Positions 2,597 through 8,482 are shown, counted from the first letter of the stretch. The stretch is DNA of 9,788 nucleotides from a virus (IMGVR_UViG_2703718846_000007:1-9788); one strand, 5' to 3'. Notes: a model not told the origin generated them from the sequence alone. Translations and numbers: made by a program.

Positions 2597-3244
2597 ATGA
2601 TGGAAAGCCTTGGCATCAGGCTAAAGAGACTCAGAAAAGATAAGGGACTAACCCAAGTAGAACTGGGTAAGCTTTCAGGTGTAACTGGAGTTACTGTAGG
2701 GTACTGGGAGAAGGATCTAAACGAACCTGGTAGTAAAGCTCTAAGTAAATTAGCCCAGGCATTAGGAACTACTGAGTCCTACCTCCTGTATGGAGTATCG
2801 TCTCCTGAATCATCTTTTATGCAGATCAATCCAGGCTCTCAGATCCCCTATTTTTCTTGGGGTGACGCGATTTCTTTCCTAATTTTAGAAGGAGAGAAAG
2901 CTATGGGAAATGTCGATAGGATCACCACATTCTTTGATGTCGAGGAAGGTGATTTTGCCGTTTCAATGCCTGATGACACTATGCATAACCCAACTGGGTC
3001 GCCGAGCATCCCAGTTGGTGCCACAGTGATCCTAAGGCCTAGAGAAAGTTATAAAAATGGTAGCATCGTCGCTGTAATAGTTCCGGATCCGCTTACAAAT
3101 GAACCATCTATGACTATAAAAAAATTAGTTATTGATGGAAAGCTTGCGTACTTAAGCCCTCTTAATCCACGCTATCAATCATCTTTGCTTACACCAGAGT
3201 GTAAAATTGTTGCCGTAGCAAAAGGCGTACAGTTCAACTTATAG
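2597..3244 (+). CDS. cI: CI-like phage repressor with N-terminal HTH and C-terminal S24 (LexA-like) autopeptidase domain
   Basis: 215-aa ORF with GGGAG upstream. N-terminal HTH LTQVELGKLSGVTGVTVGYWE; C-terminal motifs AVSMPDD (catalytic Ser), TIKKLV (catalytic Lys) and LSPLNPRY align with lambda CI GNSM, TFKKLI and LQPLNPQY. Confidence 0.9.
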   Translation: MMESLGIRLKRLRKDKGLTQVELGKLSGVTGVTVGYWEKDLNEPGSKALSKLAQALGTTESYLLYGVSSPESSFMQINPGSQIPYFSWGDAISFLILEGEKAMGNVDRITTFFDVEEGDFAVSMPDDTMHNPTGSPSIPVGATVILRPRESYKNGSIVAVIVPDPLTNEPSMTIKKLVIDGKLAYLSPLNPRYQSSLLTPECKIVAVAKGVQFNL

Positions 3245-3341: not shown

Positions 3342-3515
3342 TATCACATACCCAACCCGCCCCACAGAATGCAGGGCAATACTTCGAGTTACCAGGCAGT
3401 GGTCAGGGGTTAAGTAGCCAGCCCGAGGCGTAAGAACATGACGGCAGGGTTCAACTTTAACTATGCAGCAGGTTTTTGTTCCGCCACCCCGGCGTTAAAG
3501 GGAAATGAGGTCAGC

Positions 3516-3668
3516 ATGGATACTATCGATCTTGGCAACAACGAATCTCTGGTATACGGCGTGTTTCCAAACCAGGACGGTACGTTCACCGCGATGACGT
3601 ATACCAAAAGCAAAACGTTTAAAACCGAAGCTGGCGCGCGTCGCTGGTTAGCCAGAAATACTGACTGA
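3516..3668 (+). CDS. Small early protein (50 aa), YdaF-like / DUF1391-like
   Basis: ATG 3516 with GAGG 5 nt upstream; TGA stop at 3666-3668. The ORF-track frame extends upstream to 3438 but that start is less well supported. Family assignment is from memory only. Confidence 0.55.
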   Translation: MDTIDLGNNESLVYGVFPNQDGTFTAMTYTKSKTFKTEAGARRWLARNTD

Positions 3669-3679
3669 TGAGGTTAACG

Positions 3680-4315
3680 ATGGAATTTAAAGATTTACCG
3701 CTATCAATCCAGGAGATTGCAGCACACACACTACGTCAACGTCTGAACGAAGCTATGGCTGAATCTGCAACGAAAGAAACCATTGATAACATGGCTCGTA
3801 ATGTGCACGATGCGTTTACCGGATTGTATTTCTGTGCGTCTGTAAATAAACACGACCCAGAGAGTGTGGCAAAGAAAATTGCAGAAACGACAGTGCAAAA
3901 CATCAATACGAAACCAACCGAAGACGAAATTGACCAGCCTGCCAGTGAACAAAAGAAAGAAAAATCGCCATATGCGGGGAACATGTTTGTTTATGACAAA
4001 CTTATCCGAATTCGTGGCGAAATTCCGACTGAATACCTGGCAAAAATTCACCAGGCATTACTTAAAAATCTGGAAACGGAAGTATTTGATGGCAACACCA
4101 ACGGCTCCTTCGTGGTGTCAGCCCTCACAAAAGAGTGGGATACAGATAATCGCCGGAATGTTGCTACATGGTTATTCAGCAACAAAGCTGCTGCCCTGGA
4201 AGCTGCGGCCTGTATTTGCGACCTGCTAAGGACAGACCGCAAATACAACCTGGATGTGTATAGCTATATTTATGCTGAACACTATCCACTCTGGATTGAC
4301 TGGTTTAAAGGGTAA
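3680..4315 (+). CDS. Hypothetical early protein (211 aa), function unknown
   Basis: ORF-track frame 3668..4315. ATG 3680 has GAGG 6 nt upstream; the alternative ATG 3668 overlaps the preceding stop (TGATG). Soluble, non-repetitive protein; no motif recognised. Confidence 0.7.
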   Translation: MEFKDLPLSIQEIAAHTLRQRLNEAMAESATKETIDNMARNVHDAFTGLYFCASVNKHDPESVAKKIAETTVQNINTKPTEDEIDQPASEQKKEKSPYAGNMFVYDKLIRIRGEIPTEYLAKIHQALLKNLETEVFDGNTNGSFVVSALTKEWDTDNRRNVATWLFSNKAAALEAAACICDLLRTDRKYNLDVYSYIYAEHYPLWIDWFKG

Positions 4316-4412
4316 CACCTGCGGGACCGAGCCGACCAGCACCACGATTATTTTATCCTCCATTAAGGGGTGAATTAAAAATGGAGACCAACACGCTGCT
4401 ACGTGTGGTCGT

Positions 4413-4452
4413 GCGCCGGACACGGATAACCTTCCGGCATGCTCTTTAACAA
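4413..4452 (+). promoter_or_regulatory. Candidate processive-antitermination site: hairpin followed by an rrn-type boxA (TGCTCTTTAACAA)
   Basis: Exact 13-mer TGCTCTTTAACAA at 4440-4452 on the plus strand, preceded by hairpin GCCGGA-N12-TCCGGC at 4415-4438. Orientation matches pL-directed transcription. Confidence 0.4.
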
Positions 4453-4477
4453 TCTGGATATCCACAACAGCAATAAC

Positions 4478-4996
4478 CTACGGATTGCTGCTCAATGCTC
4501 TACCTATCTCTTCTTCAGATGGGGGCGGTATATAGTCATCATTGCGTTCAAATTTAAAGCGCGAATCACATTTCAGGCATTTAGAAATATGGAACTTATC
4601 ATGCTCACCAATTTCAACAGGTTGAAGTATTGCTATTACACCATGCTGATAGCAATTGGGACAGGCATAGTGAAAACATGTGTCTTCTTCGTCGAGGCTG
4701 TTCCTGAAAGCATAGACAAAATGCCCAAAACCAGTTTTGTGTATCGTATAGCATTCAAGTTTTCGATTACGCTCGTCAATTTCATGACATTTTTGCTTAA
4801 GCAAGAGTATTTCCTCGTACTGAAGCGCGAGCGTTTTCGCTAGCTCTGCGTTCTGTATTTGTAAGTCTGCCAGTTGGCGACGCATTTCGTAGACAGCCTT
4901 TTCACGTTCAGATTGGCTTTTTGCATCAAGTATTACCTGTAATAAATCAATCGAGACTTTAATTGCCGTTATTGATGAAGTTATTCCAGATAGCAT
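4478..4996 (-). CDS. Hypothetical coiled-coil plus zinc-ribbon protein (172 aa) on an antisense-oriented AT-rich insert
   Basis: ORF-track frame 4478..5113, trimmed to ATG 4994-4996 because a perfect TATAAT lies about 32 nt upstream. N-terminal heptad-like region RRQLADLQIQNAELAKTLALQYEEILLLKQK; C-terminal CPNC...CLKC cysteine pairs. GC is visibly lower than in the flanks. Confidence 0.65.
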   Translation of the reverse strand: MLSGITSSITAIKVSIDLLQVILDAKSQSEREKAVYEMRRQLADLQIQNAELAKTLALQYEEILLLKQKCHEIDERNRKLECYTIHKTGFGHFVYAFRNSLDEEDTCFHYACPNCYQHGVIAILQPVEIGEHDKFHISKCLKCDSRFKFERNDDYIPPPSEEEIGRALSSNP

Positions 4997-5007
4997 TCTT
5001 AACTCTC

Positions 5008-5060
5008 TGTGTTGTTGGGGTATCCGGATTATACAAATTTCTTGTTGTTGGGGAACAACA
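5008..5060 (-). promoter_or_regulatory. Promoter and candidate operators for the antisense gene
   Basis: Minus-strand TATAAT (plus 5028-5033). Two copies of TGTTGTTGGGG (plus 5010-5020 and 5043-5053); the second forms a perfect palindrome TGTTGTT-GGGG-AACAACA (5043-5060) over the -35 region. Confidence 0.5.
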
Positions 5061-5313
5061 GGAACCACCTCGCCTGATGTGGTTAAAAGCAGGCACACAA
5101 CACGAAAGCGCACGGCGAAGGTTTCTTTTCCTTAGAAGGCTTGTCGTTAGATTTCTTCGACCGTGCGCTTCCGGTTGTGGCAATCCGCGAAATGGCGCGG
5201 CGGTAAGTATGGCGGGGTTATCCTTACCCCCACTGGTAGCACCGGGTTGTCAGGTTGACCATACGCTTAAGTGACAACCCCGCTACAACACTCCATGTTG
5301 AGTATTGACCTTT

Positions 5314-5354
5314 GGCGGCATCAGTTTAATTGCTGGCTGATGTCCGCCCTTTTT
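5314..5354 (+). terminator. Rho-independent terminator (plus strand)
   Basis: Stem GGCGGCATCAG (5314-5324), 12-nt loop, stem CTGATGTCCGCC (5337-5348), then CTTTTT (5349-5354). Confidence 0.6.
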
Positions 5355-5550
5355 AAAGTGAATTTTGTGATGTGGTGAATGCGGCTAAGCGCACGCGGAA
5401 CAGTTAAAAGACCATTTGTTCTCCGTATCAATACTTATGGGTAGGTACTTGCAGGCGGGTCCCTGTATTCCGGCGTTAATTGTTAACTGGTTAACGTCAC
5501 CTGGAGGCACCAGGCACCGCATCACAAAATTCATTGTTGAGGACGCGATA

Positions 5551-5739
5551 ATGGAAACGTTATTACTCAATTCCACTACGCCTGAGACTCGTTTTGAAAT
5601 TGGCGTTATCACTGGCGATAAAAACTTTATTGAAGATGCCATTAATCAGATAAAGCATGAGCCAGATTCATCAAATGAGATATGCATTGCTTCAATGCTG
5701 GCCCGTTTACGCCCGACGCAAAAAGGATGCTGGCAATGA
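5551..5739 (+). CDS. Hypothetical small protein (62 aa)
   Basis: ATG 5551 with GAGGA 7 nt upstream; stop TGA 5737-5739 overlaps the next start. The ORF-track frame begins at 5416 but upstream in-frame starts lack a Shine-Dalgarno and use rare codons. Confidence 0.45.
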   Translation: METLLLNSTTPETRFEIGVITGDKNFIEDAINQIKHEPDSSNEICIASMLARLRPTQKGCWQ

Positions 5740-6016: not shown

Positions 6017-8482
6017 ATGAGCACTGATAAAGAAGAATTTGCATTATATTGTGAAGCAAAAAATGACAAAGTCAGAAAACGCCTTGGAATTAAAGGTGGT
6101 TTTTACTGGACTACAGCAAAAAAATTATCTGTTGCCATCTCCCGCTGCATTACCGCAATGGATGACAACGATTATGATGAAGACGACTTTAAAAAACCCG
6201 TCCGCGTCCATTTACCCGTTGTGAATGACCTTCCACCTGAAGGCGTGTTTGATACTGAATTCTGTAACCGTTACGAAAAAGGCGGGGAAGATGGCATCAC
6301 AATGGTATTTATCGCGCCCTCACCCTCTGCGCAGGACAAACCAGCCAACACTGACAATACCAACGTCAACGGCGAAGACATGACTGAGATTGAGGAGAAC
6401 ATGCTCCTGCCGGTTTCAGGTCAGATTCTGCCTGTTCGATGGCTGGCACAGCACGGCAGCGAAAAACCGATCACACACGTTTCGCGGGACGAACTGCGCG
6501 CATTACATAACGCACAGGATGAAAAACTTCCCGCCGTTACCGCGCTGGCTATCTCAAATAAAGCAGCGCAACTCGAACCGCTGGAGATTCGCGATCTCCA
6601 CAAACTGGTGCGAGACACTGACAAAGTTTTCCCCGCCCCCGTAAATTCGGACCTGGGACTGATAACTTCTTTTATCGAAGCATACCTGGACGCCGACTAC
6701 ACCGATCGCGGTCTGCTGACAAAAGAGTGGATGAAAGGAAATCGTGTTTCGCGTATCACCCGTACGGCTTCCGGTGCAAATGCCGGTGGCGGGAACAAAA
6801 CCGATCGCAATCCGAATTTAGTACACACCTTCGATACGCTGGATGTGGAGACTGCAGCAGCCACACTTCCGATGGATTTTAATATTTATGAAATTCCGGG
6901 TAGCGTTTATCGTCGCGCAAAAGAAATCGTCCTGAAAAGAGAAAGTCCGTTCAAAGAATGGTCCGCAGCACTTCGCGCAACCCCGGGTATTCTGGATTAT
7001 TCCCGCGCCGCTATTTTTGCACTTATCCGGAGCGCTCACCCTGAGTTTTATCACTACCCGGGACGCCTTCAGGGGTATATCAACGCCCACTTAACGGAGA
7101 CTGATCACGAGAACCCCAGCAAGGAAACTCTCACTGCTGCACGACATACACCGGAAAAAGATATCCTGGAAGAAGTTAACCGCGAACTGGCTGCTGAACG
7201 CGAAACAGAAGAAGAAAAAAATAATGAGGAAAAATCACAACCGTCTGACGCAATGGCAGATGAACAGGCAACGGCCGAAGCAATGGAGCCGGATACAACT
7301 GAACATCACCAGGACACGCAATCGCTGGATACTCAGGAACAGGTAGATCCAGTTAAACAGGTAAAAGTTACCGCTGACGAAGTAAACAAAATTATGCAGG
7401 CAGCCAATATCAACCAGCCTGATGCCGACAAAATACTGGCAGTCCATCGCGGTGAGTTCGTTGACGGAATTAGCGACCCGAATGATCCGAAATGGGTTAA
7501 GGGGATTGAAACCCGCGATTCTGTGAACCAGAACCTGCCCGAATCGGAACAAAACGACCAGAAAGCGGAACAGAACAGCCCAAATACGTTACAAAACGAG
7601 CCAGAAACGAAACAGCCTGAACCAGAAGAGCAACAAGAACCGGAAAAAGTCTGCACCGCCTGCGGTCAGAGCGGTGGCGGCAACTGCCCTGATTGTGGCG
7701 CGGTGATGGGCGACGCAACATACCAGGAAACATTCGATGAAGAGAATCAGGCTGAAACTCAGGAAAATGATCCGGAGGAAATGGAAGGCGCTGAACATCC
7801 GAACAATGAGAATGCTGGTAACGATCAGCATCACACCAGCGATAGTAAAACTGGCGAGGCGGCAGATCCCTTAATTACGGTGAACAGTCATCACATTATC
7901 ACATCCACCAGCAGGGTATGGCACCATCTGATGATCGACCTTGAAACGATGGGAATTAACAGCAATGCGCCCATCGTAGTTATTGCTGCAGTGTTTTTCG
8001 ATCCGCAGACCGGGGAAATCGGACCGATATTTTATGTTGTCATCAGTCTGGTTGACGCAATGGACAAAGGTGCTACTCCCGATGGTGACGTAATCGAATG
8101 GTGGCTGGCGCAGTCCAGCGAGGCCAGATCTGCAATATTGGTAAATCAAATTCCGTTAGATGATGCACTATTGCAATTGCGGGAATTTATCGACGAAAAC
8201 TCCGGTGAATTTTTTGTTCGGGTCTGGGGAAATGGAGCCAGCTTCGACAACGTGATTTTACGCCGTTCATATGAACGGCAGGGTATCCCCTGCCCGTGGC
8301 GTTACTGCAACGATCGCGATGTGCGCACAATCGTTGATCTGGGAAAAGCCATAGACTTCGATGCCAGAACAGCTATTCCGTTCGAAGGCGTACGCCATAA
8401 TGCACTGGATGATGCCCGCCACCAGGCAAAACAAGTTTCAGCTATCTGGCAAAAACTGATCCCGAGTCAGGTTGATTTTTAA
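6017..8482 (+). CDS. Large prophage exonuclease (821 aa): RecE/exodeoxyribonuclease VIII-like N-terminal region, acidic low-complexity linker, CxxC-x9-CxxC zinc ribbon, C-terminal DEDDh-type 3'-5' exonuclease domain
   Basis: ATG 6017 with GAGG 7 nt upstream. C-terminal about 196 aa (nt 7892-8479) carry DEDDh motifs MIDLET, GNGASFD and HNALDD. Zinc ribbon CTACGQSGGGNCPDCG near nt 7651-7700. N-terminal segments (NTNVNGEDMTEIEENMLLP..., DYTDRGLLTKEWMKGNRVS...) resemble enterobacterial exonuclease VIII proteins as I recall them. Confidence 0.85.
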   Translation: MSTDKEEFALYCEAKNDKVRKRLGIKGGFYWTTAKKLSVAISRCITAMDDNDYDEDDFKKPVRVHLPVVNDLPPEGVFDTEFCNRYEKGGEDGITMVFIAPSPSAQDKPANTDNTNVNGEDMTEIEENMLLPVSGQILPVRWLAQHGSEKPITHVSRDELRALHNAQDEKLPAVTALAISNKAAQLEPLEIRDLHKLVRDTDKVFPAPVNSDLGLITSFIEAYLDADYTDRGLLTKEWMKGNRVSRITRTASGANAGGGNKTDRNPNLVHTFDTLDVETAAATLPMDFNIYEIPGSVYRRAKEIVLKRESPFKEWSAALRATPGILDYSRAAIFALIRSAHPEFYHYPGRLQGYINAHLTETDHENPSKETLTAARHTPEKDILEEVNRELAAERETEEEKNNEEKSQPSDAMADEQATAEAMEPDTTEHHQDTQSLDTQEQVDPVKQVKVTADEVNKIMQAANINQPDADKILAVHRGEFVDGISDPNDPKWVKGIETRDSVNQNLPESEQNDQKAEQNSPNTLQNEPETKQPEPEEQQEPEKVCTACGQSGGGNCPDCGAVMGDATYQETFDEENQAETQENDPEEMEGAEHPNNENAGNDQHHTSDSKTGEAADPLITVNSHHIITSTSRVWHHLMIDLETMGINSNAPIVVIAAVFFDPQTGEIGPIFYVVISLVDAMDKGATPDGDVIEWWLAQSSEARSAILVNQIPLDDALLQLREFIDENSGEFFVRVWGNGASFDNVILRRSYERQGIPCPWRYCNDRDVRTIVDLGKAIDFDARTAIPFEGVRHNALDDARHQAKQVSAIWQKLIPSQVDF

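Follow-up and report, generated by a model that had tools for sequence, protein, structure and literature searches.

The stretch of viral DNA analysed here (the window, 9,788 nt) comes from a lambdoid E. coli prophage of the Qin/DicB type, of which it covers the immunity region and the early-left arm. One AT-rich gene in this arm runs against the surrounding operon, and it raises the question of what its product does and what the repeat-bearing, palindromic DNA just upstream of its start codon is for. An initial annotation had read it as an independently regulated accessory gene of no recognised family, possibly repressed by its own product through the palindrome. We estimate a probability of about three in four that the gene, here called rip1-like, is a separately transcribed moron in the sieB slot with a predicted function as a single-protein anti-phage defence of the Rip1 family. 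By analogy with phage P22, an antisense RNA resembling sas probably silences the gene once the prophage goes lytic.

An antisense gene in the sieB slot

The prophage has repressor, xis and int genes, and the gene runs opposite to its early-left operon (Table 1). That it stands alone on its strand in the early-left region and is lower in GC than its neighbours had been noted at the outset. It is indeed the sole substantial minus-strand ORF between the repressor and int; its GC content is 40.5%, with 47.0% in the window as a whole and about 51% in the immediate flanks, and the dip is modest, other early-left genes having 43-44%. The 172-aa product originally proposed is also the reading we prefer, because the N-termini of the protein family align to its M1. 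A 211-aa reading from a GTG at 5113, which PGAP gives in some genomes, crosses conserved non-coding DNA, namely the module described below, and is probably wrong. Public annotations of the gene disagree, with products of 172, 211 or 267 aa or truncated ones of 106-107 aa. In PapRG-04-4, no more than a 107-aa fragment is annotated for a 99.5% identical copy, suggesting that this allele carries a frameshift or a nonsense mutation.

Table 1. Features of the window and of the rip1-like product; nucleotide positions are counted from the first nucleotide of the window
Feature	Position	Strand	Details
O-like replication gene, YdaT/cII-like gene, cro-like gene		minus	
CI/S24-type repressor gene	2597-3244	plus	
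Two early-left ORFs	3438-3668, 3668-4315	plus	
rip1-like gene	4478-4996	minus	172 aa plus stop; ATG at 4996-4994; ORF call and translation
Stretch homologous to P22 sas antisense RNA	4992-5110	plus	Approximate ends; by homology only
SD-like AGAGAG	5003-5008	minus	6 nt upstream of ATG; read from sequence
Proximal 11-nt repeat	5010-5020		TGTTGTTGGGG on plus strand, CCCCAACAACA on gene strand; between -10-like hexamer and SD
-10-like hexamer	5028-5033	minus	TATAAT on gene strand (ATTATA on plus strand)
Hairpin	5039-5064	plus	Arms 5039-5049 and 5054-5064; GGGG loop 5050-5053
Distal 11-nt repeat	5043-5053		TGTTGTTGGGG; inside hairpin
Near-invariant 30-nt core	5065-5094		CCACCTCGCCTGATGTGGTTAAAAGCAGGC on plus strand
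DicF-like RNA	5303-5349	plus	Rfam match, below the gathering score
dicB	about 5437-5739	plus	DUF1482 gene also on plus strand
821-aa exonuclease ORF	6017-8482	plus	xis and int also on plus strand
Hydrophobic/amphipathic helix of product	residues 2-24		
Long helix of product	residues 28-81		
ILQP motif of product	residues 123-126		
Beta-rich four-cysteine domain of product	C-terminal		

In each of the four phage types examined, the Rip1-family homologue is an antisense "moron". Three of these lie in the early-left region: the rip1 gene of HK446 (gp37), with N on one side and a ral-like gene on the other, hkaP of HK620 and HK630, between hkaQ/N and cIII, and the PhiR29_2 homologue, between yfdP and cI; the homologue of Pseudomonas phage DMS3-25 likewise occupies an antisense moron slot. 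In lambda and in P22, sieB fills the equivalent slot, antisense to the pL operon, so the early suggestion, made from position, that this is a place for superinfection-exclusion or defence genes was sound. Lambda and P22 sieB, HK620 hkaP and HK446 rip1 all take the equivalent antisense position. Recurrence at equivalent positions, which had been proposed as a check, is found for the homologues in HK446, HK620/HK630 and PhiR29_2, and by its homology to Rip1 the gene is predicted to be defence cargo itself. The suggestion that it has expression signals of its own fits a conserved -10-like hexamer and SD on the gene strand, and the gene would be transcribed independently of the surrounding operon.

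A close relative, the DicB-type phage mEp460_ev081 (L011, 2290-2749), was compared with the window over 3700-5039. The flanks are shared, at 94% identity on the left and 81-86% on the right from window position 5039 onward, and in place of rip1 there is a 66-aa ORF behind a short-leader version of the upstream module. Such a replacement is direct evidence of cargo swapping at the slot.

Several further features of the arm were observed. The DicF-like small RNA scores 37.9 bits against an Rfam gathering score of 48 (E=1.7e-5), and a terminator-like hairpin with a T-run lies at 5317-5344, a short way upstream of dicB; a single early-left transcript would be the source of DicF as well as of the putative sas-like RNA, each being cut from it. 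Another Rfam match below threshold, to STnc100 (5351-5570, plus strand), scores 33.9 bits where the gathering score is 47, and extends into the beginning of dicB. Upstream of dicF, the segment 5100-5300 is prophage DNA of very wide distribution: of 5426 complete E. coli genomes, about 4360 contain matches to it at 80-90% identity, with a median of 2 copies per genome. The 13-nt arms of an inverted repeat lie at 5103-5115 and 5161-5173. Inside the exonuclease ORF, the plus strand shows a very strong AT skew (0.41-0.49) at 7050-7800. This region encodes the middle of the exonuclease, ahead of the C-terminal nuclease domain, where the protein has a long low-complexity segment that is acidic and rich in Q/E/N/K.

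A divergent member of the Rip1 family

Scans of the 172-aa protein against Pfam, PADLOC and NCBIfam gave nothing usable, and a word-indexed homologue search returned near-identical proteins only. The protein matches phrog_1244 (E=7.5e-32), a PHROG labelled "unknown function", and a literature search for that name gave no match. The family became visible only through tblastn against phage genomes and an exhaustive phmmer search. The former found full-length homologues at 28-32% identity in HK620 (hkaP), HK629/HK630, PhiR29_2 and Klebsiella Kp4882-1, and in the Pseudomonas Mu-like phages DMS3, JBD30, D3112 and MP38, while the latter collected 343 representative clusters at 50% identity, nearly all of about 145-185 aa. 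In an alignment of 88 sequences, C112, C115 and C140 are invariant, and 90% or more of the members share C143, Y83, G91, Y95 and L124. The layout that had been read from the sequence, a helical N-terminus followed by a four-cysteine ribbon, is borne out as N-terminal helices and then a beta-rich domain with C112/C115 and C140/C143.

A profile of the 88 members matched PDB 9oox_L with E=2.4e-37 over profile positions 4-148, nearly full length. The single sequence matched 9oox by phmmer (E=6.1e-9), and BLASTP against HK446 gp37 gave E=6e-12 at 24% identity. An AlphaFold (AF2) model built on the family alignment was confident throughout (pLDDT 92.4), and Foldseek matched it to 9oox_M with a probability of 1.00 (TM 0.75, rmsd 2.9 A, 123 columns). 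The only significant PDB matches were 9oox chains, the next match having E=0.29. The remote-homology search and structural comparison that had been recommended as a check therefore gave a decisive match to 9oox, which is phage HK446 Rip1 ("ring-interacting pore 1") bound to the T6 small terminase. The expectation of a protein without a characterised family fails here, as the family has a solved relative and a published mechanism (PMC13434031).

Rip1 is a single-protein, prophage-encoded defence (Patel et al., Nature 651:1060, 2026, as summarised in PMC13434031). According to that summary, the Rip1 gene of a P. aeruginosa prophage sits between terminase genes, Rip1 alone is non-toxic, and phages that escape it are altered in the portal (Pseudomonas phages) or in the small terminase (E. 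coli phages). The same summary describes a cryo-EM structure in which an 11-mer small-terminase ring is surrounded by 12 Rip1 monomers, a pore formed by N-terminal amphipathic helices with dye release from liposomes and perforation of cells, and relatives widespread in proteobacterial prophages. The mechanism of the family is also treated in PMC13601566 and PMC12908700.

Residues 1-24 of the window protein have a mean hydrophobicity of 0.37-0.40 and a hydrophobic moment of 0.27-0.33, compared with 0.34-0.40 and 0.27-0.42 for the N-terminus of HK446 Rip1, and the analysis of these residues found a classical TM segment in neither protein. Because the whole architecture is kept and the properties of the N-terminal helix resemble those of HK446 Rip1, we assign the protein to this family, of which it is a divergent, new member. 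At 24% identity, its trigger specificity or even its activity could differ from that of HK446 Rip1. Membership of SieB was also considered and rejected, as the protein has no Pfam SieB match and falls outside the lambda/P22 SieB group (cluster 2).

A protein with a Rip1-like fold could do another job, either SieB-type exclusion with a different trigger or service as a factor on the DicB/DicF cell-division module, and the low identity to HK446 Rip1, the great diversity of the family and the adjoining dicF and dicB would all allow for this. We nonetheless think it unlikely, since the protein keeps the family architecture over its full length, together with the invariant cysteines and the Y/G/Y/ILQ motifs, and the gene recurs together with the same cassette in HK620, HK446, PhiR29_2 and Kp4882-1, all of which are without dicBF; the link to DicB is thus positional only. 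It is more doubtful still that the gene has lost its activity and is left over in a cryptic prophage undergoing decay, its frame intact by chance or recency. Truncated versions of 106-119 aa are annotated in other strains, from which it follows that the gene is dispensable, and the exact allele, like DNA near-identical to 4300-5300, is present in only 3 of 5426 complete E. coli genomes. Against decay, the frame is intact, all family-invariant residues are present, the model is confident over its length, the regulatory module is undamaged and agrees with the family consensus, and in Salmonella a copy with 89% identity still has all 172 aa. A defence protein of the Rip1 type remains our preferred reading.

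A conserved module upstream of unrelated genes

Upstream of the ATG lies a module of about 115 nt that is not private to the rip1-like gene. On the gene strand it runs from a 30-nt core through a CCCC-loop hairpin containing the first repeat copy, a -10-like hexamer and the second repeat copy to the SD and the ATG. The perfect TATAAT reported earlier is present, and so are the two repeat copies: TGTTGTTGGGG occurs exactly twice in the window, where about 0.23 matches are expected by chance and two or more were seen in 6 of 200 shuffles. The copies are 33 bp apart, one on either side of the -10 hexamer. The palindrome had been described as a perfect one over the -35 region; it is real and longer than claimed, with 11-nt arms that are 91% complementary around a GGGG loop. 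No acceptable -35 element was found 16-18 bp upstream of the TATAAT, and a sigma-70 scan called neither the TATAAT promoter nor any promoter from which a sas-like RNA could start on the plus strand. Even so, 28 of 30 long-type cassettes have a -10-like hexamer (4 or more of 6 matches) where they align to it, which supports a promoter despite the absent -35, and a purine-rich stretch stands in the place of the SD in all aligned cassettes.

The core contains two overlapping invariant helices, CCAC/GTGG and GCCTG/CAGGC. These interleave in the topology of an H-type pseudoknot; as they never vary, they offer no covariation evidence for such a topology.

The same layout is found upstream of the Rip1 homologues of HK620, HK446, PhiR29_2 and Kp4882-1, whose proteins are about 30% identical, and upstream of lambda and P22 sieB, whose product is unrelated. 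The sequence of the P22 sas antisense RNA has been published (PMC13397905), and it is the exact reverse complement of the module in P22, starting 5 nt inside sieB; for these coordinates AF217253 matched the sRNA paper, while NC_002371 and BK000583 differ. The plus strand of the window is 66% identical to P22 sas overall and agrees at 27 of the 30 core positions. Rfam has no family that covers 4992-5110. This sas-homologous stretch is antisense to the SD and start codon of rip1, and it would be transcribed as part of the repressor-controlled early-left operon.

Scanning viral contigs with the core pattern gave at least 120 stretches (L016-L135), and the core marks a slot whose content is hypervariable. 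Among the matches listed, the downstream ORF always points away from the core, and the leader comes in two forms: a short one, with the start codon 54-60 nt from the core, one hairpin and TATNCT directly after the core, and a long one, with the start codon 84-93 nt from the core, as in the window. The ORFs behind the module fall into at least 35 unrelated clusters. The largest among the matches listed are Rip1-like (at least 15), SfIV_36-like (at least 15) and SieB (at least 12), followed by a small CxxC protein (at least 11) and a 106-aa membrane protein (at least 10). Ten cargo representatives gave no convincing match in Pfam or PADLOC. One cargo (L074) is a 136-aa coiled-coil protein with two CxxC motifs that does not cluster with Rip1 by BLAST; hhalign against the Rip1 family profile gave a probability of 96%, and the ILQP beta segment is missing, so that, going by this alignment, it may be a shortened Rip1-like variant.

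Among the matches listed, both repeat copies always change together, as CCCCAACAAC, CCCCTACAG, TTCCACAGTCAA, CCCCCACAA or CCCCAATGCAA, and one repeat type is found with different cargo families. The CCCCAACAAC type precedes at least five unrelated families, and the CCCCTACAG type is common to lambda/P22 SieB and HK620/HK446 Rip1. Whatever binds the repeats therefore cannot be the cargo protein.

The hairpin was analysed in 30 distinct long-type modules, whose sequences are related. RNAalifold on a MAFFT alignment predicted only the invariant GCCUG/CAGGC stem, and for this reason the hairpin pairs were specified by hand for counting. Compensatory changes occur at 8 of the 11 pairs, and pairing is kept in 83% of cells. 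The covariation observed was reached in 0 of 500 column shuffles; registers slid along the alignment gave about 40% pairing. G-U pairs number 40 in the plus (sas) sense and 18 in the gene sense, a moderate excess over 23 distinct, related variants. RNAfold found the plus-strand hairpin more stable in 27 of 29 variants (mean -8.5 versus -4.85 kcal/mol), and the GCCUG/CAGGC core stem is invariant except for two U-G variants that pair only in the plus sense. Single-sequence folds of the module were no better than shuffles (z=-1.1, plus strand).

These results run against the earlier proposal of a palindrome through which the product may repress its own gene, since SieB, SfIV_36-like proteins and other unrelated cargo have the same hairpin and repeats upstream. 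A zinc-ribbon protein that acts as a DNA-binding regulator of its own promoter would suit the identical 11-mers flanking the -10, one of them inside the inverted repeat, and the four-cysteine domain of the protein, but it is very improbable given the sharing of repeat types between unrelated cargo, an inverted repeat that varies yet keeps its pairing, the RNA-like G-U excess on the non-coding strand, and the binding of the homologous C-terminal domain in 9oox to a protein ring rather than to DNA. Taken together, the compensatory changes, the G-U excess opposite the gene strand and the homology to P22 sas point, at the level of sequence comparison, to an RNA-level module and not to an autoregulatory operator.

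Proposed mechanism, related systems and implications

We propose the following course of events, modelled on published Rip1 and on the P22 locus. In the lysogen, the repressed prophage would make the Rip1-like protein by constitutive low expression, with the gene strand of the module supplying the -10-like element, leader and SD, and the protein would be harmless alone. A superinfecting phage in late gene expression would produce oligomer rings of small terminase or portal. These rings would nucleate a Rip1 ring via the C-terminal four-cysteine domain, the N-terminal helices would form a membrane pore, and the cell would collapse before progeny mature, resulting in abortive infection. Upon prophage induction, repressor-controlled early-left transcription would cross rip1 and the module to give a sas-like RNA. 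Bearing the covarying GGGG-loop hairpin and complementary to the SD and the start codon, this RNA would stop the synthesis of Rip1. The shut-off would spare the terminase and portal of the induced prophage itself.

A precedent for antisense shut-off is the sieB/esc/sas exclusion locus of P22 and lambda, reportedly described by Ranade and Poteete in 1993. An Esc-like internal start was considered for the Rip1 family and rejected, no Met being conserved. With no internal start of the Esc type, RNA-based self-immunity would be a simple shut-off and not a translational switch.

The closest known systems are HK446 gp37 and Pseudomonas Rip1, which the window protein resembles in full-length homology, fold, the four cysteines and the character of the N-terminal helix. 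HK446 further shares the prophage slot and the architecture of the upstream cassette. It differs in protein sequence (only 24% identity), in the cassette repeat (CCCCTACAG, where the window has CCCCAACAAC) and in its host element, an HK97-like phage as opposed to a Qin/DicB-type element with a CI/S24 repressor. HkaP of HK620 and HK629/HK630, annotated as a "putative superinfection exclusion protein" in AF335538, is 28% identical over its full coverage and is encoded antisense between N/hkaQ and cIII, behind the same module as the window protein; it belongs to a different subfamily, closer to HK446 Rip1, and its annotation is positional only. A literature search found no experimental data on HkaP; in the one relevant paper, the flanks of the gene served as insertion sites only.

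The sieB/sas locus of P22 and lambda shares with the window the antisense position in the pL operon and a homologous upstream module, including the sas region. Both SieB and proteins of the Rip1 type are prophage-expressed and cause abortive infection, which by analogy would extend to the window protein. SieB itself is an unrelated membrane protein of 184-192 aa, and its locus has an Esc product, whereas the Rip1 family lacks a conserved internal start of that kind. A further parallel, in the same slot as a Rip1-family homologue, is Tab/anti-Tab of Pseudomonas phage JBD26 (PMC10884400). This defence is expressed by the prophage, acts at a late stage and has a promoter of its own. Tab is an unrelated 83-aa protein that blocks tail assembly via the tape-measure protein (PMC10884400), and self-immunity in JBD26 is provided by a protein, anti-Tab, in contrast to the RNA proposed for the window locus.

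For the gene itself, these findings turn a "hypothetical protein" with inconsistent PGAP starts into a predicted Rip1-type abortive-infection defence, with a concrete predicted trigger in small-terminase or portal rings. The most interesting by-product is that one conserved sas-type module recurs before unannotated cargo families by the dozen; besides Rip1 and SieB, dozens of small proteins of no assigned role stand behind it in the same slot. We suggest, tentatively and at rather less than even odds, that this module is a portable "express in lysogen, silence when lytic" switch that couples any cargo in the sieB slot to a sas-like RNA. If this is true, the co-varying repeat types would define specificity classes, and the at least 35 cargo families, almost wholly unannotated, would be a largely unexplored reservoir of exclusion and defence genes, of which Rip1 and SieB would be the only two families characterised so far. 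The core motif CTTTTNNCCACNTCAGGCNNGGTGG is a possible sequence handle for mining new defence genes. If the sas-type switch is general, it would explain how prophages can carry late-acting suicide defences without killing their own progeny.
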